From the NCBI GenBank assembly GCA_964446735.1, contig CAYUQB010000002.1, positions 18,516 through 82,515 of the forward strand: a stretch of DNA of 64,000 nucleotides, in the 5' to 3' direction. This document shows positions 45,573 to 64,000 of the stretch, one piece after another; positions within the stretch are counted from its first letter, which is position 1, and each line of letters opens with the position of its first letter. Origin of the DNA: an uncultured Candidatus Saccharibacteria bacterium. Its GTDB lineage: Bacteria; Patescibacteriota; Minisyncoccia; Phycocordibacterales; Phycocordibacteraceae. A model generated the notes under the pieces. That model was not told the DNA's origin and made no database searches. It saw only the letters and a program-made list of their open reading frames with translations. The position numbers were made by a program, and so were the translations under genes.

Positions 45573-45610
45573 AAGCTTGTTAAATAAGGGTTTTCTGAAG
45601 AGTCTCGCTC

Positions 45611-45629
45611 AAAAAGCGGGGCTTTTTTG
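45611..45629 (+). terminator. weak hairpin plus T-tract after gap
   Basis: AAAAAGC-GGG-GCTTTTTT. Confidence 0.35.
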
Positions 45630-45680
45630 CTACCTGCTTTTCACTCACCTAAAGGTCGAAATTATTAGCCAAGTTAACCA

Positions 45681-45875
45681 TTGTCCCGAAAGGGATCAGC
45701 CGGAGTACGACGGCAGATGCTAGCGATGGATCAGAAAAACCATGAGGAAGTATGTAATCGATGGAATGGAGATTTACTCAAGTCTCGATTTCCGGAGACG
45801 AAGAAAAAGCTTCTTGAGACGGCTATTCGATGTATTCGTAGGTCCAGTTATCCACAGGGTCAGACGAATCAATGA
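45681..45875 (+). CDS. hypothetical small protein (64 aa)
   Basis: ORF only; first ORF of the low-GC region. Confidence 0.25.
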   Translation: MSRKGSAGVRRQMLAMDQKNHEEVCNRWNGDLLKSRFPETKKKLLETAIRCIRRSSYPQGQTNQ

Positions 45876-46120
45876 AAGCTCTCAAAAGTACCCGATTAGT
45901 TACTTACCGTAGATCTGGGAAACCCGCCCTGATCCTTGAGGGTAAGTGGCTAACGGAACGATATCGATTGAAAGTTGGCGACGTGATCGATGTCGATTAT
46001 CAGCCAAAGGAAATTAGGATACGCAAAAATCACAAATTAAGTGTTGAGCGTAGAAAGTTTCTGGCGGAAGTCGCCGAGCTTCGTAGACAGCAAATCGAAG
46101 CGATAAAGAATAGGAATTAG
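45872..46120 (+). CDS. SymE-like / AbrB-fold (SpoVT-AbrB) small protein
   Basis: SGKPALILEGKWLTERYRLKVGDVIDVDYQPKEIRIRKN resembles the SymE toxin core (P-A-I-T-L-K-G-x-W-L-x-x-x-G-F..G..v.V....i.l). 82 aa, basic C-terminus. Confidence 0.4.
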   Translation: MKALKSTRLVTYRRSGKPALILEGKWLTERYRLKVGDVIDVDYQPKEIRIRKNHKLSVERRKFLAEVAELRRQQIEAIKNRN

Positions 46121-46235
46121 AAATGATTAATCACTTAAAAGTAGTAATTAAAAAATAAAAGACCCCCGAAGGGAGCCTTTCATCAACAGATACATCGTAT
46201 CAAAGACCCCTTTGGTGAGTCAATAGCTAAAAACT

Positions 46236-47423
46236 ATGACAACCACATTACAAAGAAACATGACACAAAACGCAACAGAAGAAAATTTCTTCACAGCGAT
46301 AGGAAACACTAAGCCCTTCTTCAAGGCAGCTTTTGAAGGAGAGCCAGGCACCGGCAAGAGCTGGAGTGCTGCATTGGTCGCTATCGGACTTCATAAGAAA
46401 ATCGGAAGTAAAAAGCCGGTTGTTCTTATCGATACCGAGAAAGCTGCGAAGTTTTTGGTCCCACTCTTTCAAGAGCATGGGATTGAAGCGATGGTGAGAG
46501 AAACGCATTCTCTCGCTGACTTGGTAACAGCTATGAGGCTCTGTACAGAAGGATATTCAGACATCATGGTGATCGATAGCATCACTCATATCTGGATGGA
46601 TTTCCAAGAGGCTTATAAGCGAAAGCTGAATAGGCAAAATTTCCAAATCCAAGACTGGATGGCAATCAAGTCTGATTGGAACAGAAATTTCTCTATCCCA
46701 TTGGTTCAGTCGCCTCTACACATTATCGCCACAGGGCGTGTGTCAGATCGAATGGAGCAAGAAATAGATGAAGATGGTCGAAAAGAGTTCACTAAGACTG
46801 GAGTAAAGATGCAGGCAGAAAAAAATGCTGCATACGAATTCGATGTCTTGGTTCTTATGGAACGCCATGAACTCATTGAGCGTAAAAAGCGTGAAGTTTG
46901 GAGACAGGCAACTGTTCTTAAGGGTCGAGGCAATCTACTTGATGGAAAGGTGTTTAAAAACCCTACATATGAGGACTTTGCACCGGCAATTGAAGCAGTT
47001 ATTAAGGATCCTGCATCTGCACGATTGAATCCAACTGAGCGTGATGCAGGTGAATTGATCCGCACAGAAGAAGATAAGCGTAAATGGGTGCTTGAAAGAA
47101 AGCGATGGCTTGAGGAGATAGAGGGATATCTTGTCTCAATTTGGCCAAGTACTGGCGCACAGGAAAAGAAAAACAAGACTGATGCGCTTGAGTATGCCTT
47201 CCAGACCCGAAGCTGGTCTGCAATTGAAGCAATGCGACCTGACGTCCTCGAGGACGGCTACGCACGAATTCAGGAGTTTGTTCAAAAGAAGATCGCTGAA
47301 ACTAAAGGCGAACTTCCTCCGGAACTGACACCTGAGCAGAAGTTCGAGAAGGATCTTAGAGATTCAAAGACAGATGAAAAGCCAAAGCGTTCTAACACTA
47401 AGGCTGTCAAAAGTGGCAAGTAA
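46236..47423 (+). CDS. phage AAA_24 / Sak4-like RecA-fold ATPase
   Basis: Walker A FEGEPGTGKSWSA, Walker B DIMVIDSITHIW, and the AAA_24 arrangement. Charged coiled C-terminal extension. Confidence 0.55.
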   Translation: MTTTLQRNMTQNATEENFFTAIGNTKPFFKAAFEGEPGTGKSWSAALVAIGLHKKIGSKKPVVLIDTEKAAKFLVPLFQEHGIEAMVRETHSLADLVTAMRLCTEGYSDIMVIDSITHIWMDFQEAYKRKLNRQNFQIQDWMAIKSDWNRNFSIPLVQSPLHIIATGRVSDRMEQEIDEDGRKEFTKTGVKMQAEKNAAYEFDVLVLMERHELIERKKREVWRQATVLKGRGNLLDGKVFKNPTYEDFAPAIEAVIKDPASARLNPTERDAGELIRTEEDKRKWVLERKRWLEEIEGYLVSIWPSTGAQEKKNKTDALEYAFQTRSWSAIEAMRPDVLEDGYARIQEFVQKKIAETKGELPPELTPEQKFEKDLRDSKTDEKPKRSNTKAVKSGK

Positions 47424-47467
47424 GTAGGTTAGCCACTGACTCAGTCCTCATCGCAGTGGCGTGAGGA

Positions 47468-48025
47468 TTGAGATCAGGGGCCAACCACCCCAACAACCCT
47501 ATGGATCAACCAAAAACCGACTTCATACCAAATAGCACTCAAATTCCAAATCTGGTCCTCGATTTTATCGTTCCTCGAATTTCAGAAGCGGAATCAAGAT
47601 GTCTTTTGTACATATGTCGTCGGACTTTTGGTTTTCATAAAGAATCTGATCGCATTAGTTTCTCTCAATTTATCGAAGGGATAAAAGATCGTAGGGGTAA
47701 TGTGCTTGATTATGGGACTGGCCTTTCAAGGCAATCAGTCGCTGCTGGCTTAAAGAATCTTGCGGCGGCCGGACTGGTCTTGGTGAGCAAAAGTAAGGGT
47801 GGAAATCTCTACAAAATAAACCTGCATATGGATGTGGATAAGGTAGTCAACTTAGTAGACCAGTCAAGAAGGTTGACCAAAAGTGGTCTAAAAAATAGAC
47901 CGAAATCGGTCTACCAAGTAGACACACAAAATCTAGGAAAAAAAGAGAAATCTAGTATTAGGGATCCTGTGAATAACTTATCCACAGAACTCAGCGAACT
48001 CACTAAAAAAATGACCATCAAATAG
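47468..48025 (+). CDS. putative phage replication initiation / winged-helix DNA-binding protein
   Basis: SEAESRCLLYICRRTFGFHKESDRISFSQFIEGI resembles the replisome-organiser/DnaD-like N-terminal HTH domain. Follows the ATPase. Confidence 0.35.
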   Translation: MRSGANHPNNPMDQPKTDFIPNSTQIPNLVLDFIVPRISEAESRCLLYICRRTFGFHKESDRISFSQFIEGIKDRRGNVLDYGTGLSRQSVAAGLKNLAAAGLVLVSKSKGGNLYKINLHMDVDKVVNLVDQSRRLTKSGLKNRPKSVYQVDTQNLGKKEKSSIRDPVNNLSTELSELTKKMTIK

Positions 48026-48028
48026 CTC

Positions 48029-48457
48029 ATGAGAAACATCAATAATCCTCGACACAAATTAACAGCATCACAGGTTCAAGAGGCACAACGCCTCTATGAG
48101 GATTATGGATGGAGGGTGAATTGGATCTCGGTTTACTTCCATATTCACCGAAGCTCAGTGATCTTTCATGCGAGATTCAACGGCTGGGTAAGGAGGATCA
48201 AAACAGCCAAGAGGATACCTGACGAAATTGCTGAGATTTATCGGGATAGGAAGAAATCAAAGTACGAGCAAAAAATGAAGGGGTCATACGAGTACATTAA
48301 GCAGTCAGCAGAACAACAAAGAGTAAAAAGTTGCGGACATATTCGATGGGTTAAGCGGTGTAGTTTGTGCGGTGAGATTCTGAGTTCTGATGCGATTTGC
48401 GAGAGGCATGAAGCGTTTGCACATAGTAATGCAACAGCTGGGTCCCGAAAGGATTAA
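48029..48457 (+). CDS. hypothetical protein with C-terminal Cys4 cluster (zinc-ribbon-like)
   Basis: CGHIRWVKRCSLCGEILSSDAICERHEAFAH; N-terminal HTH-like LTASQVQEAQRLYEDYGW. Confidence 0.3.
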   Translation: MRNINNPRHKLTASQVQEAQRLYEDYGWRVNWISVYFHIHRSSVIFHARFNGWVRRIKTAKRIPDEIAEIYRDRKKSKYEQKMKGSYEYIKQSAEQQRVKSCGHIRWVKRCSLCGEILSSDAICERHEAFAHSNATAGSRKD

Positions 48458-48475
48458 TAACATTTCAATAAAGCC

Positions 48476-48877
48476 ATGAATAAACAAAAAACAAAAATAG
48501 AAAAAGTAGAGAATCCATTGAATCTATCAGCTCGTTTTCTAGCTGCTCGACCTGATCTAGTTGGGGCGTGGATTATTGGGGCGCACGGCTTGCTTCCAAT
48601 CTTCAAGTCAAAAAGCCGAGAAGCAATCATTGCTTATCTCGATACGGTCCAAAGGGAATTCTTTACCGCTTTGAGGCATCACTGGGAAAAGGGAAATCCG
48701 GATCAGAAGCTTACTTACACTTTCGGCACTATTTGCCGGAATCGAAAGGGTGAGGAAAGGCTAGTGATTGGTGTGCTTGCTCAAAAGAATAATAAGCCGA
48801 CCTACGAGTATATGGCCGATGATGGCAAGGTTGGGGCTTGTAATGAATCAAGTATGGTTGGCTGGATGGAAAAATAA
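48476..48877 (+). CDS. hypothetical protein
   Basis: 133-aa ORF in phage operon context; no motif recognised. Confidence 0.3.
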   Translation: MNKQKTKIEKVENPLNLSARFLAARPDLVGAWIIGAHGLLPIFKSKSREAIIAYLDTVQREFFTALRHHWEKGNPDQKLTYTFGTICRNRKGEERLVIGVLAQKNNKPTYEYMADDGKVGACNESSMVGWMEK

Positions 48878-48880
48878 TTT

Positions 48881-50110
48881 ATGAAGATAGAGCTTATAAA
48901 AATTACTGAACTTAAAGCGGCTGATTATAACCCTCGAGTAATGCCCGAGGAGGAATTGGGGAAGCTGAAAAGGTCTATAACCGAGTTTGGTTTTATTGAG
49001 CCGGTTGTAGTTAATAGCAATCCGCAGAGATTGAATGTCATCATTGGTGGGCATCAGCGTGTAGAGGCTGCCCGACAACTTGGGATGACGGAGGTGCCAG
49101 TAGTTTTTCTTTCTCTAGATGTTGCAAAAGAGAAGATCCTTAACATTGCGCTCAATCGTATTCATGGGTCTTGGGATGAAGTTAAATTGGCAACTCTTTT
49201 TACTGAACTTGGTCTTGATGGATCAGTAGATATTTTGCTTGCAGGTTTTGATACTGCGGAGATCGATAAGATTCTTGATAAGGTCAATTCCAAGTCTGAG
49301 TTTGATCCTGAAAAGGAAGCGGCGGCAATTAAAGATCCTGTATCAAAGGCAGGAGAAGTTTATGAGCTTGGACCGCATAGATTGATTTGTGGTGATAGTA
49401 CGGTCCTAGAAGATTTTGAAAAGCTGATGGGAGGAAAAAAGGCAAAGGTTTGTTTTACAAGCCCGCCTTACAACATGGGCAATCAGTCTCTCTATGCCGA
49501 CTACGACGATAACTTGCCGAGCAGAGAGTATATCGAATTCAATCTTTCCATAGTTCGTAATGTTCAACAGCATCTCAAAGGATTTCTGTTTTGGAATATG
49601 AGCTATAACAAGAATTCACGCTGGGAATGGATTGAAGTATTCCATCGGATCATAAAAGAAACTGACTTTAGATTTTTAGAGTGCATTGTTTGGGATAAAG
49701 GGCATGGTCTGCCGGTTCTGAGCAAAGATGCTCTGACGAGGCAATATGAAAATATTTTAGTTGCTGAAAATCAGGATGACCCGAAGGATATTGATTTTGT
49801 TTTTATTGGAGCGAATCAAAAAGCAGTCTTTCATAAGGGTCATAAAAAGAAGCTCACTAACTATTGGTATTTCAGTACACAAAATACTCAGATTGAAGGG
49901 CATGGTGCCTGTTTTCCAGTCGAGTTACCAAAACGTGCGATTGAATTGATGACTGATCGTGGAGATATCGTTTTGGATCCTTTTGGAGGGTCCGGATCAA
50001 CCCTCATTGCGGCCGAGCAATGCGGCAGAGTGGCGTATCTCGTTGAGAAAAGCCCACTCTTTTGTGATGTGATCCGTAAACGATATGAGCAATACACCAA
50101 ACAAAGCTGA
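48881..50110 (+). CDS. ParB-like nuclease domain fused to beta-class N6-adenine/N4-cytosine DNA methyltransferase
   Basis: N-terminal ParB/Srx-like region (GGHQRVEAARQLG). FTSPPYNMG (motif IV SPPY) and DPFGGSGSTLIAAEQCGR (motif I). Order IV then I indicates a beta-class amino-MTase. Confidence 0.8.
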   Translation: MKIELIKITELKAADYNPRVMPEEELGKLKRSITEFGFIEPVVVNSNPQRLNVIIGGHQRVEAARQLGMTEVPVVFLSLDVAKEKILNIALNRIHGSWDEVKLATLFTELGLDGSVDILLAGFDTAEIDKILDKVNSKSEFDPEKEAAAIKDPVSKAGEVYELGPHRLICGDSTVLEDFEKLMGGKKAKVCFTSPPYNMGNQSLYADYDDNLPSREYIEFNLSIVRNVQQHLKGFLFWNMSYNKNSRWEWIEVFHRIIKETDFRFLECIVWDKGHGLPVLSKDALTRQYENILVAENQDDPKDIDFVFIGANQKAVFHKGHKKKLTNYWYFSTQNTQIEGHGACFPVELPKRAIELMTDRGDIVLDPFGGSGSTLIAAEQCGRVAYLVEKSPLFCDVIRKRYEQYTKQS

Positions 50111-50762
50111 AATAGAGCCAAAAATGAACGCACAGCAGTTTGAGATATTTCTCAAGTACTGGGGCATGGGTAGGGATAGAAGTCTCGTAAAACTGCATGA
50201 GCAGATACACCACGACTACACCACCGCTACACCAAAAAAGAGGGTGCCTTCGATCGACACTTTCAAGCTTTGGTCAATCAAATTTGATTGGCAAAAGCAG
50301 ATCATTGAGATGGATGATGAGGCGAATAAACAGGTGCTTCTTGATGCTATGGGTGCAGCTCGTGAAGCTCGCACAGATATTCTCAAAATCTTCAAAGCTG
50401 TGGTGATGAAGTTTGCTATGCAAATGAAGGATCACAAAGATAAAGAGATTACATCAATGGATGTTTATTCCTTTTGGAAGATGGCAAGAATTGAGATGAA
50501 TCTTCCATCTGATAGACCTGATCTCACATCGGGCAACAAGCCCTTTGGGGGAGATAAAAATGTTTCTCCTGAGGAGGACAATCGAATATTCGATTTGTTC
50601 AGTCCGAAGGATTGGCCGGTCGAACCAATAAAGCAAGAAAAAGTATTAACCAAAGAAAATGCAAAACCAGAGACCAACAAAGATGATGGAAAAGATAACG
50701 CCGGAGGGACTGATGTTCCTGAAGAACAGCAGTCGGGAAGCGCGTACGAAAGCAGCAAGTAA
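50085..50762 (+). CDS. putative terminase small subunit
   Basis: 225 aa, position immediately 5' of TerL; N-terminal HTH-like segment; acidic C-terminus. No diagnostic motif. Confidence 0.35.
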   Translation: MSNTPNKAEIEPKMNAQQFEIFLKYWGMGRDRSLVKLHEQIHHDYTTATPKKRVPSIDTFKLWSIKFDWQKQIIEMDDEANKQVLLDAMGAAREARTDILKIFKAVVMKFAMQMKDHKDKEITSMDVYSFWKMARIEMNLPSDRPDLTSGNKPFGGDKNVSPEEDNRIFDLFSPKDWPVEPIKQEKVLTKENAKPETNKDDGKDNAGGTDVPEEQQSGSAYESSK

Positions 50763-52395: not shown

Positions 52396-54420
52396 ATGGC
52401 ATTAGCCCACTATAAGAAAAGAGAGGAATTAGCAAAACAGGCTCTCAAAGAGATCGATTATTCGTATCGCTACAAGAAAGCTCGCATGACTTCGTGGAAT
52501 AAGAACGAGGACATGATGAATCCGGACCGAATAAATCCATCAGTAGTTTCTCCGTATGGTGGTAGTACTTATCAGCAACAGCAAGGAGATACTCGAGCGC
52601 AAGTGCCTCTCTACAAGATGCACGGATTTGTTCACACCATCCTTTCAAAGATTGATAGTCCATTAACTTTTAAATATGTGAAGGGTGAATCGGCTGATTT
52701 GAAGAAATCTAAGCTGATGAACGCAATAAAAGATAAGGATTCAAAAGTCGGCAGGTGGAATTTTAAGGATCTGATGGGAAAGCGTGATGCGGCGATTTAT
52801 GGACGCACGATGTACCTTTACATGTCTAGAAATGATAAGGGTGTTTATCGAAGTATCTTGAATCTCATAGATCCGAAAGACTTTTTGATTGATCCTGATG
52901 TTGGTGGTCTATGTACTGAGGAAGAAGATGGGAGTGGAATTGAAAAAGCTCTTTATCTTGGCTGGTGGAATACAAAGATTTCTCGTGCCCAACTCCAAAA
53001 AGGTATTAAGGACGGTATTTATTACAAGAAAGTTGTTGAAGGGTTGCTCGATGGTGGTACTAACACCACTACGAAAACTCAACAGGACATTGATAAAGAT
53101 AATCGAAAGATTAGTGGCGCACCAAGAGAGCGTTTTAAGAATGAAAATCAATTTATTTTTTATACTTGGATCACTACAGACGAGAATGATGATCGCTACT
53201 ATCTAGTTCTCACTCCATCAGGTGATTGTATTCGTTGTGAGCCGTGGACTGATGTAAGAAAAAGTGGAAAATATCCTATTTGGACATGGGCGGCATTTCC
53301 TGATCCTCGTGAGTTTTGGACACCATCATATTGTGATTTTGCTCGTGGCATTTTCATGGCTCAAGAAAAGAGTATCAACCAATCACTTGATAACTCTGAG
53401 CAGATAAATCGTCCTCAAACTGCTGTGAATGTTGATTATGTGAGGAACTTAGCACAAGTTCGTTATCGCAAGGACGGCTATATTGAGATCGAAGGAAATA
53501 TTGATGTAAATAAAGTTCTACAGACTAGGCAAACACCACCAATTGAGGGTCCATTTAAGGTTTACGACAAGCTTGAGCAGATCGTTGAATCAGAAAGTGG
53601 CGTTACTGCCGATGTGAAGGGAACAAGTGATGAAGATACGCTTGGCATCTATGAGGGCAACCTGATGCAAGCCGGTGATCGCTTTGGTCTTTTGAATAAA
53701 AGTTACGCAGAAGGCTATTACCGATTTGCTGTATTGCACAAAGAGGGTGTCATGCAGGATCTCAAAAAGAAAATGGCCGTTCAGATTCTCGGTCCTATGG
53801 GTCTTGAAATTGAAATGGTCAGCTCGAGAGATTTGAAACCGTTTAGAGATGACTATGACATTCTCGTTGAATCAAGTATTGCTGAGGCTCAGAGTAATTT
53901 GGCAGATAGTAAAAATAAACTCACATTTCTTGGAGCGTATAAAGGCGATCAAACTATAAATCAGAAAGTTTTGTTTGAAACTCAGGCAACTATTGCTGGT
54001 GTTGATGATGACACTATCAAGCGATTACTCGATACGAGTGATTACGATGCTATCGAAGTTGTGGCTCAGGCAGATGAGGCATTTCAGATCATTATTGGTG
54101 GCGATAAAGCTCCTCTCTACAAAGATGCAAATACTGCTTTCCTTCAACGCATCCATGATCTCTCGGATAAATACGATCACGAACTTAGTACCGAACAACA
54201 TAACGCTGTATTTGCTTACATCGACGAGATAACGCCGATTGTTGAGAAAAATGCAGCTCGTTCGGTGATGGCACAGGCAGCAAAAGAAGGCTTGATCAGC
54301 GGAAGGGGTCGGATGGTCGATGGAGCCGATCTCGAAAATCCTGATCTTGCCGCAACTGGAGCTGTCCGTCTCGGAGATCCGGGAGCGGAAGCGGCAGAAA
54401 CCGCAGCATTATCAAAATAA
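52396..54420 (+). CDS. putative portal protein
   Basis: 674-aa ORF directly downstream of terL; size and position typical of portal. No motif confirmation. Confidence 0.45.
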   Translation: MALAHYKKREELAKQALKEIDYSYRYKKARMTSWNKNEDMMNPDRINPSVVSPYGGSTYQQQQGDTRAQVPLYKMHGFVHTILSKIDSPLTFKYVKGESADLKKSKLMNAIKDKDSKVGRWNFKDLMGKRDAAIYGRTMYLYMSRNDKGVYRSILNLIDPKDFLIDPDVGGLCTEEEDGSGIEKALYLGWWNTKISRAQLQKGIKDGIYYKKVVEGLLDGGTNTTTKTQQDIDKDNRKISGAPRERFKNENQFIFYTWITTDENDDRYYLVLTPSGDCIRCEPWTDVRKSGKYPIWTWAAFPDPREFWTPSYCDFARGIFMAQEKSINQSLDNSEQINRPQTAVNVDYVRNLAQVRYRKDGYIEIEGNIDVNKVLQTRQTPPIEGPFKVYDKLEQIVESESGVTADVKGTSDEDTLGIYEGNLMQAGDRFGLLNKSYAEGYYRFAVLHKEGVMQDLKKKMAVQILGPMGLEIEMVSSRDLKPFRDDYDILVESSIAEAQSNLADSKNKLTFLGAYKGDQTINQKVLFETQATIAGVDDDTIKRLLDTSDYDAIEVVAQADEAFQIIIGGDKAPLYKDANTAFLQRIHDLSDKYDHELSTEQHNAVFAYIDEITPIVEKNAARSVMAQAAKEGLISGRGRMVDGADLENPDLAATGAVRLGDPGAEAAETAALSK

Positions 54421-54436: not shown

Positions 54437-54772
54437 ATGTCTGAATCAAACAATGTGAAATTCGTAGAATCTGATGGTAAATGGCTCTGGAAGCTCTATG
54501 GGGTTGACGGATCTGTTATTCATCGCAGTAATCTGTTCGATACTGAGCAGGAAGCAAGGGCTGATCATGAGGCTTATGGCAATGGGGTAGGCTCATCTAC
54601 TGCCGAAGGGGCAAACACGGCTCCAGAAGCTCCCCAGCAAGCCACAGAGGGGGTCCCAACTGCTCCTCAGGATGATCTTGGGGCTGGATCTGCTGGTCCT
54701 GCTGAAGAAAATGCCGGTCTTGACAAAACTGTTGGAGAATCGGCTGATACCTTGAATAATCCTGATGCTTAA
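54437..54772 (+). CDS. DUF1508 (YegP-like) domain protein
   Basis: VKFVESDGKWLWKLYGVDGSVIHRSNLFDTEQEARADHEAY fits the YegP/DUF1508 repeat (F.i..d..G.wRwrL...NG.ii..Se.Y.s...a). Confidence 0.45.
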   Translation: MSESNNVKFVESDGKWLWKLYGVDGSVIHRSNLFDTEQEARADHEAYGNGVGSSTAEGANTAPEAPQQATEGVPTAPQDDLGAGSAGPAEENAGLDKTVGESADTLNNPDA

Positions 54773-55139
54773 ATTCTCTTACAAAATCAAAAAGCGATCG
54801 AGAGATAAGGGTGATCATAGAATCACTAAGCATGGTCAAGTTGCAGAGTTCTCTTTGCGAGAAATCAATCGCAACATTGAACAAATGCGAAAGCAGGTTA
54901 AGGAAATGGAGGCAAATGCTCGTTTGCAAGAAAGTCTTGCTGAGAATATTCGCCGATCTAATCCTGATCTGGTCTCTTATATGAAAAAGCTGTCTCCGAA
55001 AAAGCGACATGCTTTGACGATGCTTGCGATTCAAGAGAATAAGGCAAAACAGTTCAAGGATCAGGAAAAGGAATCAAAGCGGATTCTCAAAACTATTATC
55101 AGAGAGGACCAAGAAGTCCGTAACCAATTAAAGCTATGA
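54765..55139 (+). CDS. hypothetical coiled-coil protein
   Basis: 124 aa, K/E/Q-rich heptad-like. Confidence 0.3.
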   Translation: MLKFSYKIKKRSRDKGDHRITKHGQVAEFSLREINRNIEQMRKQVKEMEANARLQESLAENIRRSNPDLVSYMKKLSPKKRHALTMLAIQENKAKQFKDQEKESKRILKTIIREDQEVRNQLKL

Positions 55140-55546
55140 ACGAAAGCGAACAAGAGCAATCACAGCAAGAAGCGGAGCCGGTGCTAACTGGTCCTCATAA
55201 TGCTGAACAGGAGGCGGATCAAGAAAAGCAAGAAGCTGATGAAGCTGAAGTTGAAGAATTAAATCATGCCATCGATGTAACCAATGATTTGGTGTCGTGG
55301 TCTAAAACTCCGGCAGGAAAAGACACTATTGAGCGTCTTCAAAATGAATCTCGAAAGGCAATGAATGAGTTGTTTGCCGTGCTACATGAAAGTCCTGAGC
55401 TTGGCAAACTTATATCTGTAATTGCTCGATTTGAAGCATCAGTACAAATGCTTAGGCGTTTTATTGGTGCCGATGAAGATCTTGATGTGTTACTTAATGA
55501 GTTGGCACGAAAAAGACCGAGTGCATCAGCTGAAGCATCAAAGTAA
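55136..55546 (+). CDS. hypothetical acidic protein
   Basis: 136 aa, E/Q/D-rich N-terminus; start overlaps upstream stop. Confidence 0.3.
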   Translation: MNESEQEQSQQEAEPVLTGPHNAEQEADQEKQEADEAEVEELNHAIDVTNDLVSWSKTPAGKDTIERLQNESRKAMNELFAVLHESPELGKLISVIARFEASVQMLRRFIGADEDLDVLLNELARKRPSASAEASK

Positions 55547-55564
55547 AGAAATTGTAAAGAAAAA

Positions 55565-55591
55565 TCACCGCTTAGTCGGTGGTTTTTCTTT
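55565..55591 (+). terminator. rho-independent terminator
   Basis: CACCG-CTTAGT-CGGTG then GTTTTTCTTTT. Confidence 0.45.
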
Positions 55592-55595
55592 TGAT

Positions 55596-55623
55596 AAGTA
55601 ATGCAACATATTGTGCATTTTTT
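55596..55623 (+). repeat. phage intergenic motif, copy 2 (before scaffold-like gene)
   Basis: AGTAATGCAACATATTGTGCATTTTTTG. Confidence 0.6.
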
Positions 55624-55712
55624 GTAGATCACACTTATCAGCATAGAGGGGCCAACCTCTTTTATTAAAAAGGTTAATGCGCTAGTGCTTAGCGTTTCCA
55701 AATGAAGCACCG

Positions 55713-56609
55713 ATGGGGCGAAACCATCGAAATATAAAACGTATGCCAAAAGCACAAAGCAAGGATGCAGCGCCTGCCGACGATAAGTCGAAAGCTGCAG
55801 GGGAATCTCAGCCAGCCGATAAGGGTGGCAAAAAAGATTCAGACAACCCTTCAAATGGTCAATCGATTGCACAGGTTGCAGGGGGTGAAAACTCCAAGTC
55901 TGACGATTCAAAAGACGGCAAGCCCAAAGAGGGTGATGAGAAGGACAGTCTCATAGTCGATCTTAAGAAAGAGAATCGTGAGATGAAAAAAATGATCAGA
56001 GACGAGGTCATTCCTACCATTCGCCAGCTCCAAGAGCAGGTCAAGAAAGGGGGTACATCGGCCGGGGACGCATTAGACGAACTCGACGAACTCGCCAAAG
56101 AGTGGGAGCTTGAGCCGAAATTTGTCCAGAAGCTCGCAAGCATTCTTCTCAACAAGTCCAAGAAGCAATTTGAGGACGAGTACCTTTCAGATATCAAGGA
56201 CATCAAGTCTAAGACGGAAGCTCAATCTAAAGAGATCTCAAATGCTCAGATCACAGCGGCAATCTCGAAAGAGTTTGATCGTGTAGTGGCTGATAATCCG
56301 GATCTTGCGAAAGTTGCCAAGAAAGAAGCTGTTAAGAAGTACATCATGTCGAGCGAGGAAAATCTTTCTCGCACCATGGAGGAAATTCTTGAAGAACTTT
56401 ACGGCGATACATCAAAAGATTCTAGCGGCATTGAGGGCTACAGCTCTCAGGGTGGCAATCATCCTAAGGAACCCGATTACAAGGCTCCAAGTGATGAGGA
56501 TCATAAGCGCATTGCAGAATCTCGAGAAAAGGGCGGACAGGAATTTGAGAAATATCAGGACGGCCTGATTGATCGCCTGACCCATCGTTCACGTCATCGC
56601 TCGAAGTAA
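55713..56609 (+). CDS. putative scaffolding protein
   Basis: 298 aa, extremely K/E/D-rich with predicted coiled coil (KKENREMKKMIRDEVIPTIRQLQEQVKK). Directly precedes the capsid gene. Start may be 55743. Confidence 0.4.
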   Translation: MGRNHRNIKRMPKAQSKDAAPADDKSKAAGESQPADKGGKKDSDNPSNGQSIAQVAGGENSKSDDSKDGKPKEGDEKDSLIVDLKKENREMKKMIRDEVIPTIRQLQEQVKKGGTSAGDALDELDELAKEWELEPKFVQKLASILLNKSKKQFEDEYLSDIKDIKSKTEAQSKEISNAQITAAISKEFDRVVADNPDLAKVAKKEAVKKYIMSSEENLSRTMEEILEELYGDTSKDSSGIEGYSSQGGNHPKEPDYKAPSDEDHKRIAESREKGGQEFEKYQDGLIDRLTHRSRHRSK

Positions 56610-56654: not shown

Positions 56655-57857
56655 ATGTTAGCAGTATTCAAAGAGCAGTTCGACAATGCCTATCAGGCAG
56701 TGTTCGACAAGGTGCTTGTGGCAATGGAGATTGCCAATACACGCCTCGAGAAAAAGCTCGAGTATGGAGCATCTGTAAAGCGTGTGAAATATTCTCTCGC
56801 ACCGATTCGTGTGCGTAACATCACTATTGGTGTGAACCGAACCATTGACCAGCTCAATGACTCGGGTGAGACCCTTCTTGTAAACAAGAACAAGGGTGCC
56901 GACTTCCGCGTCTCGAAGAAAGAGATGATTCAGGCAGGCCCACTGAATCCAGCGGAAACTATTGGTGCTGAGGTGGCAAAGAAGCTATCTCGTTATATCG
57001 ATGCTGACGTATTTGCTCAGGTGAAAAATGCGCTCCAGACATTCGATACCGGAGATCTCACTACGATGAGTTCTAATGGAACCGCTATTACACTTTCGAC
57101 TACAAATGTCCCTCAGCTTTTGTCTCAGGGTCGTGCGAAGCTCCGAAAGGCAAATCAAGATCTCACCAGTCTTGCCTTGGTGTTGGATAGCTATGGTGGC
57201 TCGGTTATCGAGCAGTATGTCATGTCGAAGAATATCGACTTGGCGGCAGCTGCCTTCAAGAACGGTTATGCCGGTCCTGTGGGTGGTGCGGAGCTTTATC
57301 TCTCCGAGAACCTTCTCGCTGAAGCTGTGATTACGATGGCGTCTAACCCTTCAAACGGTCAGATCTTCTCGATCAATGGCTTTATCTACACCTTCGTAAC
57401 TTCGATTGGATCAACGCCGGGCAATGTGCTTATCGAGGCTGGTGTGGATGCAACCCGAGACAACCTGATTGATGCGATTCATCAGACTACCGGTACTGCC
57501 GGATCTAAGTACATCGCATGGACTGATACGGACCCTGGCTACGATCAGTCTAACTGGGTTGATCTTCAGCTTGCAGCTGTCGATAACGATGGTGCGGATA
57601 CTATCACCATTACTGGTACTGGCTCTGGTCGCCTTGTATTTGGCGGAAACGCTACTTACACGGTTACCAAGAATCTTGTTCACGCTTACTACGGTAAGAA
57701 GGGAGCAATCGATGTGGTCATTCAGGACCTTGCCGAGATGGAAATGGTTGATGACCCTTACCAGCGAGCAAAAATCATTCGAGCTGACGCTATCTACGGC
57801 ATCTTCACCTTTGCCGATGGAAAGCCACAGTTCCTTGATGTGCTTCTCCAGTCTTAA
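56655..57857 (+). CDS. putative major capsid protein
   Basis: 400 aa. Position after scaffold; followed by a strong hairpin. No sequence motif confirmation. Confidence 0.4.
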   Translation: MLAVFKEQFDNAYQAVFDKVLVAMEIANTRLEKKLEYGASVKRVKYSLAPIRVRNITIGVNRTIDQLNDSGETLLVNKNKGADFRVSKKEMIQAGPLNPAETIGAEVAKKLSRYIDADVFAQVKNALQTFDTGDLTTMSSNGTAITLSTTNVPQLLSQGRAKLRKANQDLTSLALVLDSYGGSVIEQYVMSKNIDLAAAAFKNGYAGPVGGAELYLSENLLAEAVITMASNPSNGQIFSINGFIYTFVTSIGSTPGNVLIEAGVDATRDNLIDAIHQTTGTAGSKYIAWTDTDPGYDQSNWVDLQLAAVDNDGADTITITGTGSGRLVFGGNATYTVTKNLVHAYYGKKGAIDVVIQDLAEMEMVDDPYQRAKIIRADAIYGIFTFADGKPQFLDVLLQS

Positions 57858-57889
57858 AGACTGCACTGGCCTCAGCGTTGCTGGGGCTT

Positions 57890-57925
57890 AGTGCTAGAGG
57901 CAGAGCTAATTCTGCTTCTAGCACT
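57890..57925 (+). terminator. strong hairpin downstream of capsid gene
   Basis: AGTGCTAGAGGCAG-AGCTAATT-CTGCTTCTAGCACT, 14-bp stem with one mismatch. Confidence 0.45.
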
Positions 57926-57945
57926 GAGACAAACAGAAAATCATC

Positions 57946-58575
57946 ATGGCTACACCACTTACAGGACAACAAATCATAGATCGATTCGAGTTTTATACCG
58001 ATGACACCACGGATCTTTCTAGTGATGAAGAATTGATACTCGCAAATGATAAGGTCCGTTTGATTTTCATGGAGCAGCCATGGGAGTTTCTACGCAGGAA
58101 AAAGAATGGAGTAGTTGAAAGCGATGGAAAAATAACTTTGCCGACTGATTTTGATGAATTGATGGAGAACTATAGCGATGATCCAACTATTGGAGAGCCG
58201 ATCACGAAAGTTATTTATGTCGGTGGTCAAAAGTCTCCATATTTGGTGGTCCCGATGGGTCAGAGAAATGCAAATAATTTCAGCAATGTGTGCTGGATTG
58301 ATCCTGCTGATGGAAAAATAAACTTTCTGCAAAATCCGGGTACTGGTGCTGCTTATGAATTCGACTACAAGACCAGCCCCGATGACATTGCCGTTGGTAC
58401 ATCTCCAAAACTTCCTGCTGAGTACCATCCAATGATCGTGTTTGCGATGCTCATTGATGAGGAGATCATCAAAAAGTCTGAAAAGGCTCGTAGCAATATG
58501 CAAGAAAACTTTGCTCAATTTCAGCGTTATATGAAAAATCTTAAATTGCGTGATGCACGATTTAAACTCGCATAA
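57946..58575 (+). CDS. hypothetical phage structural protein
   Basis: 209-aa ORF in structural module. Confidence 0.3.
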   Translation: MATPLTGQQIIDRFEFYTDDTTDLSSDEELILANDKVRLIFMEQPWEFLRRKKNGVVESDGKITLPTDFDELMENYSDDPTIGEPITKVIYVGGQKSPYLVVPMGQRNANNFSNVCWIDPADGKINFLQNPGTGAAYEFDYKTSPDDIAVGTSPKLPAEYHPMIVFAMLIDEEIIKKSEKARSNMQENFAQFQRYMKNLKLRDARFKLA

Positions 58576-58578
58576 TTT

Positions 58579-60480
58579 ATGGCAGATCATGAGATTAAAA
58601 AATATGGATCGGGAGTACATAATCGAGAGGATAATGAGGATACACCGAAAGATAGTGCAAAAGATTCACTCAACTGGGTAACGATTGATGGAAAGATTGA
58701 ACTTGCCCGAGGAAAAGTAACCGTGGGATCTGAAGGAGCGGCCGGTGCCTGTCCGGCTATTCATGTTGGATACAAAGCAAACGGTACAGGAATTCTTTGG
58801 CGAAAAGTTGCAACAGCTATCCAGTATTTTAATGGCCTGACGTGGGTAAATGTTGTTACCGGTCTCAATCCAAATGATATTTATGTGTTTACAAACTACA
58901 GCTCTCTTACCGGAGCTTGGACTTTTGCCGGTGGTCCGGGTGGCTTATTTAAGTTCGCTAACGCCAATCCAAATGATTTTATTCAGCTCTATACAACAAC
59001 AGATTTCTTCTGTGGTTTTCCTTTGATCGATAAAGCAAGAATGTATTTATGGGGGATTGCAAAAGATCCTACAAGTCTTTATCGAAGCTTTGTTGATGTT
59101 CAAAGAGATGGTGTCAGCTTTACTCAAATCTCAAATGAAAGTTTGGCTAGCGGAAATGGATCGCAAACATTATTTTCAGGTGTTTTGGCTTTTAAATCTG
59201 GCCAACCAAAAAGAAATTGTGGTTTGGTAACAGTCAAATGCACAGATGGCGGTGGTGAAATATTTACTGATGATAAAAATGGAAATCTTAAAAGCACTGC
59301 CGGTGGAGTTGGAACGATAAATTATATTACTGGTGCGTGGAGCGTTACTTTTGTTACGGTTCCATCAAACTCTGCTGGAAATATCAAAGCGGATTATGTT
59401 TGGGAAAATAGCACAAGCAAAGGAGTAGCAGATTTTACTTATAGTTCATCTCGTCTCGCAGGTGAAGGAGATGTGATTAGACAAGATGAAGGTGGCGATG
59501 CTATTCAACAGCTCGTAATTGGTATCGATGGCAATTACTATTCGCTTAAAAAACAAAGTGCATATCAACATAAATACACTGATGACGATAAAACTTTCAA
59601 TAACCAAGTTGTCAGAAGAAATATCGGTGTTCTTACTCGAAGAAGTGCCGTAACTACCGGCCGAGGAGTGGTCTTTATTAATACTGCCAATCCTGATCGA
59701 CCTCAACTCACAGTTCTTGAGAAAAATCCTCTCGGTGATGACATTCTTGCAACTGAGCTTATTCCACATTTTGCATGGGAGAAATTTGATTACTCGGATA
59801 CGTTCATGGAAACCTACGGGCAATTTATTGTCATGACGTGTCGTTCTCAAGGAAGCATTGTAAATGATCGGATGCTTGTCATCGATATTGTAAAAAATAC
59901 TGTCGATCTCACTAATTACGGAATGAAATCATTAGTTAAAGATTCGGGGATTCTTTATGGTGGCAGTCCGCATACTCAGACTGTCTACAAAATATTAAAT
60001 GGATTTGATGATGATGGTTATGTGGTTCAAAACAGTTGGGATAGTAAATACGAAACTTACGGTGTTCGTCGGCTCAAGAAATATCGTCGCCTGAGATATC
60101 GAGGCGAAATTGATCCAGCTCAATATGTGGAAATCTACGCAGATTTTGATGGATCTGGATATTCCTTAGTAGGCACAATTCGAGGCGATGCTACTTATGT
60201 GAATCGGTCTAGTCCTTCAAGCGTTGGAACAACAATGATAGGTGAAGCGGCTGTTGGAGGCGATGGATCAGCTCAAGTGTATCCCTACGAGCTGCAGATT
60301 AAGGCGATGAAAATTCCTAAATTCCGTAGACGAAGTATCCGATTTATCGCAAAAGGAATCGGATATGTGAGTGTCATGGAATCGGTCGATTGGGATATTT
60401 TGACCTTTGAGGACAAATTACCAAAGGTCTACCGCCAAAAACAGCATGTAAGTCTTGATGGCAAAAGCACAAACCAGTAA
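58579..60480 (+). CDS. hypothetical phage structural protein (633 aa)
   Basis: ORF, context. Confidence 0.3.
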   Translation: MADHEIKKYGSGVHNREDNEDTPKDSAKDSLNWVTIDGKIELARGKVTVGSEGAAGACPAIHVGYKANGTGILWRKVATAIQYFNGLTWVNVVTGLNPNDIYVFTNYSSLTGAWTFAGGPGGLFKFANANPNDFIQLYTTTDFFCGFPLIDKARMYLWGIAKDPTSLYRSFVDVQRDGVSFTQISNESLASGNGSQTLFSGVLAFKSGQPKRNCGLVTVKCTDGGGEIFTDDKNGNLKSTAGGVGTINYITGAWSVTFVTVPSNSAGNIKADYVWENSTSKGVADFTYSSSRLAGEGDVIRQDEGGDAIQQLVIGIDGNYYSLKKQSAYQHKYTDDDKTFNNQVVRRNIGVLTRRSAVTTGRGVVFINTANPDRPQLTVLEKNPLGDDILATELIPHFAWEKFDYSDTFMETYGQFIVMTCRSQGSIVNDRMLVIDIVKNTVDLTNYGMKSLVKDSGILYGGSPHTQTVYKILNGFDDDGYVVQNSWDSKYETYGVRRLKKYRRLRYRGEIDPAQYVEIYADFDGSGYSLVGTIRGDATYVNRSSPSSVGTTMIGEAAVGGDGSAQVYPYELQIKAMKIPKFRRRSIRFIAKGIGYVSVMESVDWDILTFEDKLPKVYRQKQHVSLDGKSTNQ

Positions 60481-60501
60481 TGCACTAAATTTTGCACTTT
60501 T
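60476..60501 (+). repeat. phage intergenic motif, copy 3 (before tail-fibre gene)
   Basis: AGTAATGCACTAAATTTTGCACTTTT. Confidence 0.55.
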
Positions 60502-60520
60502 AGGCACTCATACTTAAACT

Positions 60521-61294
60521 ATGGCCTCTAAACTCACTAAAGTAGTCGCAAATTTTGAGACATCACTTGCAACCAAACTTGCGAATGGGGCCGTTTCAGG
60601 TGCCTTAACGAGTGTTACCGACAAGAATAGTGTGGTTTTACCAGCAGGTAAATACTGCATGATCGTGGATCGAGGCACCGGTGATGAGGAGCATCTTGTA
60701 TTCGATCTTTCCGGTACTGCCATAAGCAACATTTTTAGTGTCTCAAGACAGGGGGTACAAACCGCCGGAGTTCAGAATATTAACGGCCATAGAGCTGGCT
60801 CAAAATGCTATCTTACTGATTTTGTAAATCTCAAAATCATAGTCGATATCCTTAATGGAGATGACACCTTGGATTCAACCAAGCCCGTAAAATATGATGC
60901 GGATCCAACTTTTAATGATTCAAAGCAGGTTGTGTCAAAAGGATATGTAGATACTAATCTTGCTGGTAAGGCATCCACTAACGGAAATAATACTTTCACT
61001 GGAAACAACAATTTCATAAATTCTCCAAATATCCCTAATGCGGTAAGTGCATCACAACCGGTAACACTTTCGCAGCTTATGGCTGCTGCACTTACTGGTA
61101 TTCAGGCTGGTCTTGAATATGTAGATGTCGCCTTGAATGGCGACGGCAGTGTGAGATCACTTCATGACAATGTGAACGGCAAGACATTTGTATTCGAGTA
61201 TGACGATAACCGGTTACTCAGAAGTATCTATGACGGCGTAAAGAAATGGTCAATTCGTGATGTTCACGAAAGGATCGCAAGCATTATCCATTAA
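60521..61294 (+). CDS. tail fibre-like protein
   Basis: Contains the phage tail-fibre/collar motif ...NAVSASQPVTLSQL and NTFTGNNNF Asn-rich segment. Confidence 0.45.
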   Translation: MASKLTKVVANFETSLATKLANGAVSGALTSVTDKNSVVLPAGKYCMIVDRGTGDEEHLVFDLSGTAISNIFSVSRQGVQTAGVQNINGHRAGSKCYLTDFVNLKIIVDILNGDDTLDSTKPVKYDADPTFNDSKQVVSKGYVDTNLAGKASTNGNNTFTGNNNFINSPNIPNAVSASQPVTLSQLMAAALTGIQAGLEYVDVALNGDGSVRSLHDNVNGKTFVFEYDDNRLLRSIYDGVKKWSIRDVHERIASIIH

Positions 61295-61308
61295 TTTAAT
61301 TTTTTACC

Positions 61309-63390
61309 ATGATTAATTTACAAGTAGATCGAAGGTTAGATAAAACAACAGTAGTTAAGGGGCAACAGATATCACCCTTTCCCAAATTTATCGAATGGGA
61401 CAAATCGGGCATTGCACAATGGCCAGCAGTAAAGGCACAAGGAAAACTGACTTTGCAGAACCAGCCGTCAGTTGGTGAGACGATCACGCTTGGTACAAAA
61501 ACATATTCTTTCGTGGCAAGTCTTGTTACCAATACAGACGGTCAGATTGTTATTGGTGCAACTGTGGCAGCTACTCGTGCAAATATCATGGCAGCTGTAA
61601 ATCTCTCAGGTCTTCCGGGAAGCCAGTACGCTTCGGCAACATCTCTAAATGGTGATGTGGAAGCAACATCTACATCTGGAAATGACATTTTCTTTACCGC
61701 AAAAATTGGTGGAACAGCCGGAAATTCAATCGCTTCAACATCTACCCTTGTTGCCCCTAACACCTTTGATGCGGCAACTCTTGGTACTTATAGAGCAGGG
61801 GCAGCCGCAAGTGATGCTGATTCAGTCCTCATGCCGTCTTATCGAGGAACTTTCAACACATCAACTGCTCAGCAATATGCGAACCGAGAATTATTTTATA
61901 TCGGTAAATCATCTTGGGATGGTGATGAAGATAGGGCATTTGGAATTCAGAATGAACTCCTCAGACAATTCCCATATCATGAATATCAGATTGGAGCCGG
62001 TGCAACACGAAAAATGTACGCTTTCAATTTTCTCGAGCGTAGAGTGAAAAGTGTCAAAACACTTACTCTCTACACAAAACTTCGTGATATTGAAGCTCAA
62101 ACACTCTCATCTCCTTTTGCGAAAAGCACAAACAATCGTGTTTTCAAAACGATTGAACTGGACTCAACGAGATTCATAACTTTTTATCGCCAACAAGCAG
62201 GAACAACCGGCATCTATGCTGTAGTGGGAAGCACCAATGCAAACGGCACAATCACTTGGGGTGCGCCCTTGCTCATGCAGGTACGAGATATGTATAACGA
62301 GAACTTTGACGCTGTTCTCATTAATACAGACAAGGTCCTTATTGCGATTGAACAAGGAGGATCAAACTTTATTAACACGGCAGTAGTAACGATCTCTGGC
62401 ACAGGCCTCGCTCTCAATACGCCGGTCCAAGTTGTTGCCGTTGCTTCTAGTTATAAGCAACTGGTTAAAGTCGGAACTGACAAAGCAATCCTTGCTTTTG
62501 AAAACGGTTCAGCGATTAATCTCTACTGCGTTTCAGTATCGGGTACTGTGCCTTCATATGGAACTCTTGCAAGCATTGCCTCAACATCAAAGCCGTTATT
62601 GGCACCTAATGGCACTGATAAATGCCAGATTGCTTATATAGGTTCAGGTGGATGGTATTCAGCAGTCGTTACCACATCCGGCACGACTATTACGGTGCAA
62701 GCTGGATTACAGATTAGTTACGATACAAATTACTCATATCGATACAACTATCTCTTTCCACTCACAACCGACACTTTTGTTTATTGGAGCCATTGGGGTG
62801 CAGTCCAATATCAAGGTCGTGATCGCATTCGAGCGGGACTAATTACTGTCTCAGGTACAAATACAACTCTTGCTAGCAGCTCCTATGTCCCTTCCGGATG
62901 GTGGGGAGATCGTCTGATGTATCCAAAACCTATTGATGCAACCAGCTTCTATGTTTATTGCTATGAAAGTAATCGTATTACTGGTGCAAAAGTTACTTTG
63001 ACTGGTACTACATTTAATTTTCCAACCATGACATATAAGGGTTTTGGATGGAATGAGAATCAAGGCGAACAAGCAATTTATAAACGACAACAATATGATA
63101 ACTTTCCTCAAATTGGTGATCCTGTTAGTTGCAGTGGCAATATGTTTTTTATTACCACTGATAACTATGTGAACGGTGCAATTGCTGTATTCAGTGATAA
63201 ACCGTTTAGTTTTGATTTGTATAGCGGTGATGATCTTGTCGGGACCTTCACGAAAAACGATCTTGGCTTCATGCAAAAAATTGCTGTCGATGTTCCGATC
63301 AACAAGGAGGAATTTGGATTGAAAATGAAAAGTAATGATAGTGTCCAGCGTTTTGCTCAGATAGATCACATGTATCTAGTAATCGACTAA
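61309..63390 (+). CDS. large phage structural protein (693 aa); putative tail spike / receptor-binding protein
   Basis: Position between fibre gene and lysin; Thr/Ser/Gly-rich beta-type composition. Confidence 0.3.
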   Translation: MINLQVDRRLDKTTVVKGQQISPFPKFIEWDKSGIAQWPAVKAQGKLTLQNQPSVGETITLGTKTYSFVASLVTNTDGQIVIGATVAATRANIMAAVNLSGLPGSQYASATSLNGDVEATSTSGNDIFFTAKIGGTAGNSIASTSTLVAPNTFDAATLGTYRAGAAASDADSVLMPSYRGTFNTSTAQQYANRELFYIGKSSWDGDEDRAFGIQNELLRQFPYHEYQIGAGATRKMYAFNFLERRVKSVKTLTLYTKLRDIEAQTLSSPFAKSTNNRVFKTIELDSTRFITFYRQQAGTTGIYAVVGSTNANGTITWGAPLLMQVRDMYNENFDAVLINTDKVLIAIEQGGSNFINTAVVTISGTGLALNTPVQVVAVASSYKQLVKVGTDKAILAFENGSAINLYCVSVSGTVPSYGTLASIASTSKPLLAPNGTDKCQIAYIGSGGWYSAVVTTSGTTITVQAGLQISYDTNYSYRYNYLFPLTTDTFVYWSHWGAVQYQGRDRIRAGLITVSGTNTTLASSSYVPSGWWGDRLMYPKPIDATSFYVYCYESNRITGAKVTLTGTTFNFPTMTYKGFGWNENQGEQAIYKRQQYDNFPQIGDPVSCSGNMFFITTDNYVNGAIAVFSDKPFSFDLYSGDDLVGTFTKNDLGFMQKIAVDVPINKEEFGLKMKSNDSVQRFAQIDHMYLVID

Positions 63391-63396
63391 AAATTA

Positions 63397-64000
63397 ATGG
63401 CATCTTACACGATACAATATGGCGATACTTTAAGTGGAATTGCCTCAAGAACCGGCAAGAGTATTCAGGAGTTGATGCGCCTGAATCCTTCCATCACTGA
63501 TCCGAACAAAATATATGCCGGACGAAGTTTGAATTTGGGTGATTCTGCACCAGCAACTGCTGTACCAGCTCCTGCTTCTACTCCGGCAAAGCAGACCATT
63601 GCTCAAGTTGCCAAAGTATCAGTGCCTAACTATGTCGAGGATCCGACAACTACTCAGATTGGCAGTTCATATAAAAGTCAGGCTACTAACACAGTAAACG
63701 AGGAAGCAATAAGAGCTGCTACTCGTTCAAGAATTCAGGGGCAGATTGATGCTATCAATGCGGCTGTTCAGGATCAGATAGTTAATTTTAGAAATACGAC
63801 TGGAAAAAATCGCCTCGGTCAAAGTTATGCTCTGGCTGCTGCTGGTGGCCGTATTGGAAGTCCTACAGGCGAAGCAGAATTTAGAACTACTGAGGACTAT
63901 AACAACCAAGAGGAGCAGACTTATAGAAATGAGGCCAATGTGAAAATCTCACAGCTTCTTGGTGCTGCTACTCGTGATGCTGATGCTGAGATTAAGGCAA
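63397..64000 (+). CDS. LysM domain-containing protein, probable endolysin; 3' end beyond window
   Basis: N-terminus YTIQYGDTLSGIASRTGKSIQELMRLNPSITDPNKIYAGRSLNL is a canonical LysM motif. Confidence 0.6.
   Translation, partial: MASYTIQYGDTLSGIASRTGKSIQELMRLNPSITDPNKIYAGRSLNLGDSAPATAVPAPASTPAKQTIAQVAKVSVPNYVEDPTTTQIGSSYKSQATNTVNEEAIRAATRSRIQGQIDAINAAVQDQIVNFRNTTGKNRLGQSYALAAAGGRIGSPTGEAEFRTTEDYNNQEEQTYRNEANVKISQLLGAATRDADAEIKA

Follow-up and report, generated by a model that had tools for sequence, protein, structure and literature searches.

The window analysed here is a 64,000-nt stretch (positions 18,516 to 82,515 of contig CAYUQB010000002.1) from an uncultured bacterium, in which a block of phage genes follows gap, the gene for glyceraldehyde-3-phosphate dehydrogenase (GAPDH). 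This block, 45527-64000, very probably represents the left part, ~18.5 kb, of a podovirus-like temperate phage of a Candidate Phyla Radiation (CPR) host of the Parcubacteria/Paceibacteria type, integrated site-specifically in the 3' end of gap. An initial annotation had described a sharp change in composition followed by ~18 kb of plus-strand phage genes, and had found no tRNA and no integrase at the left boundary. Our data agree with it on these points. The GC content is 0.531 over 1-45526 and 0.428 over 45527-64000, all sizeable open reading frames (ORFs) from 45.7 to 64 kb are phage genes on the plus strand, ARAGORN detects no tRNA or tmRNA anywhere in the window, and searches against Pfam and PHROGs yield no integrase or recombinase domain in any ORF of the phage block. 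Three options had been put forward: that integrase and att sites lie at the far right end, that the element integrated by another mechanism, or that a phage contig was mis-joined to the host. The data presented below favor the first: integrase and att site seem to be missing because the window ends before attR and, as judged from related phages, probably also before the integrase.

The evidence for site-specific integration comes from three junction sequences. Contigs L001, L002 and L039 belong to the Logan assembly of SRR12113420, the run of the window, while the 2.7-kb contig L038 stems from the Logan assembly of a different run, SRR8426593. L038 was found by a search with the window GAPDH and encodes a 99%-identical protein. 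Its positions 1-2289 match window positions 43238-45526 with 0 mismatches, whereupon the two sequences part inside gap, 46 nt before the stop codon. Past this point L038 continues with CCACACCCTTATTGAGCACGCCGTTAAAGCAGGCAGAGCCTAA, the native gap tail (..THTLIEHAVKAGRA*), and reaches rpiB, representing the empty site (attB). The window instead continues with TCATACGTTAGTCCAACATGTGATTAAGGCCGGACAATACTTATAG, coding for ..THTLVQHVIKAGQYL; the native tail HTLIEHAVKAGRA of L038 thus stands against HTLVQHVIKAGQYL* in the lysogen. The third sequence, the 3-kb contig L039, consists of a 270-nt arm (GC 0.44), AGGGTATAC at 271-279, the native gap tail, and a host part with rpiB, rpe and a transketolase subunit gene (tkt) that has a GC content of 0.525. 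From AGGGTATAC on, L039 equals L038 2281-2724, with 0 mismatches in 444 nt. Aligned, the junctions read ..CGAAGC-AGGGTATAC-TCATACG.. for attL (window), ..CGAAGC-AGGGTATAC-CCACACC.. for attB (L038) and ..TGAGAT-AGGGTATAC-CCACACC.. for attR (L039). The unoccupied site is the exact join of the left flank of the window and the right flank of L039 over a 9-bp core, with 0 mismatches on both sides. This core, identical at window 45518-45526 and L039 271-279 and common to attL, attB and attR, encodes part of the conserved GAPDH motif ..NE-x-GYT. Immediately to its left, the L039 arm holds a decayed gap copy (TGGTATCGTAATGAGAT against TGGTACGACAACGAAGC). The triad is the signature of conservative site-specific recombination within the 9-bp core.

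Three details of the initial annotation have to be revised in the light of these junctions. The element had been taken to begin at 45573, after gap and its terminator, whereas the identity to the empty site already ends at 45526, inside gap. The junction had been described as free of an att site, whereas the core is present; it escapes recognition when only the window is considered, since the second copy is situated past 64 kb. The matching att repeat that the annotation had proposed to look for there was found as the second core copy on L039, before rpiB. Finally, the hairpin behind gap had been assigned to gap as its terminator. This hairpin (45597-45627) is phage DNA and is not part of the empty site, where only 39 nt, without hairpin, separate the gap stop codon from rpiB.

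In mechanistic terms, recombination took place inside the core, in gap codons, as the alignment shows. The P' arm of the phage contributes a substitute for the final 14 codons of gap together with a stop codon and a hairpin plus T run, and the native gap tail with rpiB-rpe-tkt is displaced to the far end of the element (attR), which is the arrangement seen on L039. In the resulting hybrid gene, host DNA covers 44556-45526 and phage DNA covers codons 325-338 and the stop codon (45528-45572). Because the P' arm supplies the gap end, GAPDH stays full length. As in the integration of phage 21 into icd, the target ORF is kept open by a phage-supplied tail and the native tail is found at the other junction, here preceding rpiB on L039. 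A phage-type gap tail, THTLV.HVI, is likewise present in the lysogens L017, L018 and L028, and equivalent hairpins follow in L017, L018, L028 and L041. A consensus terminator scan did not call the window hairpin. The element is present and absent, respectively, in two populations with identical flanks. Since it is missing from an otherwise identical strain in the other sample, its insertion or excision was recent, and from these sequences the phage is probably active.

Related phages were collected by scanning GTDB representative genomes with the LysM protein encoded at the window end, and by IMG/VR scans that added ~20 more contigs. The GTDB scan returned very close phages within long contigs of Paceibacteria/Paceibacterota metagenome-assembled genomes; the window's own contig is absent from that set, and the window's own protein is not among the LysM homologue matches. 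In L017, L018 and L028, from three other metagenomes, the left neighbour of the phage at attL is again gap, in a diverged form, which pointed to site-specific integration. Altogether, the phage family or a unit of integrase and att site was found at gap in five further contigs (L017, L018, L028; L041/L044; L043). One of these arrangements is provided by IMG/VR contig 3300025323_000513 (c513, comprising L018, L031 and L041). Here, gap is followed by the phage body, ~13 kb of cargo (a ResIII/AlwI-like protein, a methylase, NOV_C, DUF3644, a Trp-repressor-like protein and others), a 392-aa tyrosine integrase (L041:13088-14266; PF00589, 1.5e-17), a 79-aa ORF and the P arm. The order continues with a pseudo-gap carrying a phage-type tail (TWYSNELGYTYTLVNHVIAAGRLV*), a hairpin, the AAAGGTCGAAATTA motif and a second, different phage of the same family. 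By its gene order c513 is to be read as a tandem double lysogen at gap, with a P-core-P' hybrid site between the two phages. The same attP-like hybrid junction occurs at 100% identity in L044, from a sister sample; it could instead represent the circular form of the second phage. In L043, a different phage body is followed by an integrase 65% identical to that of c513, a small helix-turn-helix (HTH) ORF, a gap remnant (FTWYDNEMGYTSALVEHV..*) and rpiB.

The link to the window is made by the P arm. The 270-nt arm of L039 aligns to L041 14500-14770, which immediately follows the integrase and 79-aa ORF, with the common blocks AGGAGTTC.G.TAAAAT, CACTTCGCTCGCCT..TGAG...AGGTGAGCG.GCGAGGTTTTT and CTGACATGGTA. 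Because the arm beside the L041 integrase is homologous to that of L039, we infer that the same integrase is encoded in the window element just before the L039 arm. Judging by the relatives, one would expect on the right of the window the remainder of the LysM protein, a ~780-aa protein, a 93-aa protein, an Amidase_2 endolysin, a 58-aa membrane protein and a variable restriction/defence block. These would be followed by a ~390-aa tyrosine integrase on the plus strand, a small HTH ORF, the P arm and attR, the right end being predicted to read L039 arm, AGGGTATAC, CCACACCCTTATTGAG..., rpiB. In this way the first option of the initial annotation, integrase and att site at the far right, is supported by the attR on L039, with the integrase deduced from the relatives.

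Several observations weigh against this assignment. The integrase of the window's own element is deduced from relatives, its predicted place lying between 64000 and the L039 arm. In seven relatives (L003, L004, L008, L009, L032, L034 and L036), the 4-7 kb covered beyond the lysis genes on the right contain no integrase. In L008 the restriction genes pass directly into grpE-dnaK (18901-20595), with no integrase or gap remnant in between; this copy has either lost its right end or follows another arrangement. One or two short matches underlie the candidate arm-type sites described below. L038 and L039 are short Logan contigs, for which the exact match to the window makes an artefact very unlikely.

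Some of these observations would also fit an element without an integrase of its own, integrated by a Xer-like host recombinase, by Mu-like DDE/HUH transposition or by illegitimate recombination. No recombinase is encoded in the ~18.4 kb of phage DNA in the window, nor at the left end, in the ~23-kb body or in the first right-hand ORFs of the relatives, and the cargo of L008 meets grpE-dnaK without an integrase. Extra genes in the relatives comprise orphan C5 methyltransferases and a weak, sub-threshold RusA-like match, but no hidden integrase, and their left-flank ORFs encode CAP-domain and unknown proteins. Against such a mechanism speak the clean attL/attB/attR set with its short common core, the lack of a target duplication or of terminal inverted repeats, and the PF00589 integrase that gap-targeting relatives encode beside a homologous arm. 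Moreover, no DDE or HUH protein was found, and inverted matches between the ends are weak, being 7-mers only. We therefore regard integrase-free integration, the second option of the initial annotation, as improbable, its support not having been found.

Still less likely is an old, vertically inherited or domesticated prophage remnant, fixed beside gap and immobile. The same location in several related hosts and the many truncated ORFs of the relative L010 would agree with such a remnant. However, an empty site with flanks 100% identical to the lysogen exists, the window's phage ORFs are without exception intact, with 80-97% identity to those of relatives, and c513 shows a tandem insertion of two different phages at one site. 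Besides, the host gap is less conserved than the phage proteins in the sole long comparison (66%, L028), with 40-48-aa end fragments at 77-83%. As a side observation, L010 (CAWKPH010000001, a 688-kb contig) shows many shortened or split ORFs, reflecting either a decaying prophage or long-read indel errors.

An assembly chimera, in which a free phage contig was joined wrongly to a host contig near 45.6 kb, might be suspected from the sharp GC step and from the absence of integrase and tRNA within the window, but is hardly credible, as Logan contig L001 (6,753 bp, identical to window 39562-46314) carries a second assembler across the gap/phage junction with 100% identity, the join coincides exactly with the 9-bp core, whose second copy precedes the displaced gap tail on L039, the same phage-gap junction recurs in three other metagenomes with diverged gap, and gap (P0010) and the empty-site rpiB (P0130) are both recorded on one 128,410-bp NCBI contig.

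Other candidates were tried and rejected. A Mu-like phage is at odds with the absence of a transposase domain, the repeated use of the same site and a repeat that is a fixed core and not a 5-bp target duplication. A Xer-dependent integrative element (IMEX) does not match a junction inside the gap coding sequence and relatives that encode their own integrase. IS200/605-like and terminal-inverted-repeat readings, suggested by a body without recombinase and a sharp end, were dropped after the empty site and attR had been found. Between the ends of c189 (L028 and L034) no att repeat of at least 14 nt exists and short matches are scattered, because c189 does not reach attR. Neither tblastn nor a peptide pattern search found a gap remnant in the right flanks of the relatives, because these flanks end inside the cargo block. 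Exact P-arm patterns were not found in viral or JGI metagenome contigs, and an rpiB profile scan of viral contigs returned nothing relevant.

The features of the left end of the element and of the phage block are summarized in the following table. Genes were assigned with Pfam and PHROGs, the hairpin energy was calculated with RNAfold, and capsid and terminase were compared with 50,697 GenBank phage records (the capsid by tblastn).

Table 1. Features of gap and of the phage block in the window.
Feature	Position	Strand	Evidence or remark
gap (type I GAPDH, 338 aa), hybrid gene	44556..45572	+	Pfam Gp_dh_N, Gp_dh_C
attL core AGGGTATAC	45518..45526	+	three-way alignment of window, L038 and L039
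phage-borne substitute 3' end of gap (P' arm), frame kept open	45527..45572	+	diverges from attB right after the core
hairpin and T run	45597..45627	+	RNAfold -16.2 kcal/mol; phage-borne
conserved left-arm motif ..AAAGGTCGAAATTA..	45640..45672	+	same place in all relatives with known left end
conserved small early protein (82 aa)	45872..46120	+	55-70% aa identity in 8 relatives
conserved intergenic element upstream of ATPase gene	46150..46235	+	nearly invariant in 7 relatives
AAA_24-type ATPase (395 aa)	46236..47423	+	PF13479 8.5e-8; phrog_1366 2.7e-39
replication initiator, Rep-O-like (185 aa)	47468..48025	+	PF04492 2e-8; phrog_18020, phrog_678
two small early proteins (142, 133 aa)	48029..48877	+	both conserved in relatives
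ParB-N nuclease-like domain fused to N6/N4 DNA methyltransferase (409 aa)	48881..50110	+	PF02195, PF01555; phrog_498 8.9e-108
small terminase	50085-50762	+	phrog_6299 7.5e-10
large terminase	50659-52341	+	phrog_38 9.8e-42
portal protein, SU10 type (674 aa)	52396..54420	+	PF23899 7.2e-13
three small proteins and 298-aa acidic, scaffold-like protein	54437..56609	+	no significant family; conserved in relatives
probable major capsid protein (400 aa)	56655..57857	+	position only
head-to-tail adaptor, SU10 type (209 aa)	57946..58575	+	PF24175 8.1e-9
tail proteins (633, 257, 693 aa)	58579..63390	+	conservation in relatives
LysM-domain protein, N-terminal 201 aa, cut by window end	63397..64000	+	PHROG transglycosylase and endolysin LysM matches

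Of the virion and lysis set, terminase, portal, adaptor, tail and LysM genes lie in the window, while the endolysin and the remainder are found only in the relatives. The 142-aa early protein shows a weak DNA-binding match (phrog_664), and the position of the 298-aa acidic protein suggests a scaffold. The capsid candidate has no Pfam or PHROG match and no tblastn match in the 50,697 GenBank phages; in L003, L004, L008 and L009 it is conserved at 89-97% aa identity. The large terminase reaches at most 22.5% identity to any of these phages. Without family matches in Pfam or PHROGs, the three tail proteins (633, 257 and 693 aa) show 82-90%, 64-92% and 32-81% aa identity, respectively, among the same four relatives, and the most variable of them, the 693-aa protein, is presumably the receptor-binding protein. 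The proteins of window 56655-63390 are encoded with identical sequences on L002. The LysM protein is ~525 aa long in relatives, and PF01476 is detected in the full-length L003 homologue.

Some relatives are of a mixed type. Five contigs (L022, L023, L026, L027 and L028, at about 4-13 kb) share the early ATPase module, in most cases with the Rep-O-like gene, and have a quite different packaging/head module. The large terminase of this module, if it matches, does so at 23-26% identity, and its portal and capsid show no relationship. Sequence comparison thus indicates modular mosaicism within the phage family.

Copies related to the left-arm motif AAAGGTCGAAATTA also lie on the right arm, where they precede the core by ~35-45 nt in L039 and L041, at a level only weakly above chance. 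The AAAGGTCGAAAT-like motifs on both arms may, speculatively, be arm-type sites of the integrase. Equally speculative is a function of the extended -10 box TGCTATAAT (L039 203-211), which may drive rpiB once it is severed from gap; a consensus promoter scan did not support an outward promoter on the P arm. At the junction, Rfam returned only a sub-threshold DapZ match. The intergenic element at 46150-46235 contains a hairpin and is more conserved than the adjoining genes, with no Rfam family and no convincing covariation, and the 82-aa early protein next to it has no Pfam or PHROG match. A window-specific insertion of ~140 nt (45729-45870) creates a doubtful 64-aa ORF at 45681-45875. Between the AAAGGTCGAAATTA motif and the 82-aa gene, most relatives have a first gene of ~110 aa, which is missing from the window, L017 and L018.

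A second group of relatives is located away from gap (L021 1-330, L022 1-380, L023 1100-1495, L024 1750-2150 and L029 1-376). Its left end begins at TGTCGCACAATAAGCC and bears three GTCGCA(C)AA repeats and a long hairpin, and the left neighbour in L023 and L024 is a CAP-domain gene. Judged by eye, the left end of relatives not at gap has a dif-like look; from these sequences the group probably possesses a different att specificity. On the minus strand of L008 (~1394) and L016 (~11553), a 21-nt stretch reads LAWYDNEI and resembles an inverted gap att region. This is probably a chance match of a kind expected about once in a hundred, and it could be a secondary site. Directly upstream of gap, window 28397-44550 encodes a repeat-rich protein of 4,937 aa, whose N-terminal segment is DNA-binding-like and whose tail is rich in Pro, Glu, Thr and Ala, and then a 447-aa secreted-looking protein without a Pfam match.

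Beyond the window end, the relatives continue past the LysM gene with the ~780-aa protein, the 93-aa protein, the Amidase_2 endolysin and the 58-aa membrane protein. Similarity between relatives stops exactly at the stop codon of the 58-aa gene, delimiting a conserved phage body of ~23 kb. Behind this gene, every relative carries a different set of restriction-modification and defence genes (L003 15035-20606, L008 15014-18741, L009 15011-20606, L031 10900-20603, L032 10790-17903, L034 10790-17634 and L036 10780-14730), including N6/N4 and C5 methylases, BpuJI, HinP1I, ResIII helicases, Fic, SIR2 and AAA_13. The GC content of the cargo is usually well below that of the phage body and falls to values as low as 0.32-0.38. 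The layout suggests a hotspot for cargo genes, situated between lysis genes and integrase.

The arrangement resembles known systems in part. The lambdoid phage 21 and the element e14, both of the tyrosine-integrase type, integrate in the 3' end of icd in E. coli and provide a substitute gene end. The likeness lies in recombination within the 3' end of a conserved gene of central metabolism, with a supplied substitute end that leaves the enzyme at full length and the native tail at the other junction. In contrast to these elements, the target here is gap in a CPR host, the core has 9 bp, 14 codons are replaced and no sequence relationship exists; in addition, the integrase, as deduced from relatives, would be placed far to the right after the defence cargo, on the same strand as all genes. 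With temperate phages that integrate into tRNA or tmRNA genes by means of a lambda-type tyrosine integrase the element shares a conserved landing site, a restored 3' end, attL and attR as direct repeat and, as deduced from relatives, an integrase beside att, yet no RNA gene is involved, the conserved site being a protein-coding motif.

Portal and adaptor match the SU10-based Pfam families PF23899 and PF24175, as in SU10-type (Kuravirus-like) podophages. However, these matches are weak (1e-13 and 1e-8), GenBank phages offer no match to the capsid, and their identity to the large terminase does not exceed 22.5%. The SU10 genome is several times larger than the ~23-kb phage body described here. 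At the level of sequence, the relation is one of shared fold families and not of genus membership. Defence-gene hotspots are a feature of temperate phages such as P2-like prophages. The cargo here likewise occupies a fixed position, between lysis genes and integrase, with a different defence set in each relative; phage lineage and host differ, and a protection of the lysogen by the cargo is putative.

In conclusion, the apparent anomaly of a prophage without integrase, tRNA and att site closes as ordinary in mechanism: a known mechanism operates in a new host group and on a new target, the gap 3' end. Full-text literature searches returned no paper describing gap as a phage attachment site, nor this phage family in CPR bacteria. 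One further reading is tentative and, in our view, rather doubtful. The unit of integrase and att site, which would recognise the codons of the near-universal GAPDH motif WYDNE-x-GYT, might serve as a portable landing system for unrelated phage bodies in diverged Patescibacteria, each with its own defence set and with a putative outward P-arm promoter, TGCTATAAT, re-driving rpiB-rpe-tkt. Carriers of the unit include at least two structural modules and the different phage body of L043. Should this hold, the unit would rank among the main routes by which CPR bacteria exchange defence genes, and would provide a ready-made tool for site-specific integration in them.

For the phage at hand, a temperate phage of an uncultivated Parcubacteria-type bacterium is well documented with exact attL, attB and attR, its capsid protein being unmatched among deposited phages, and the polymorphism of the element between two samples constitutes a firm virus-host link. 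The gap 3' end shows enough conservation for repeated use in diverged hosts, and the site could be of help in the genetics of CPR bacteria.

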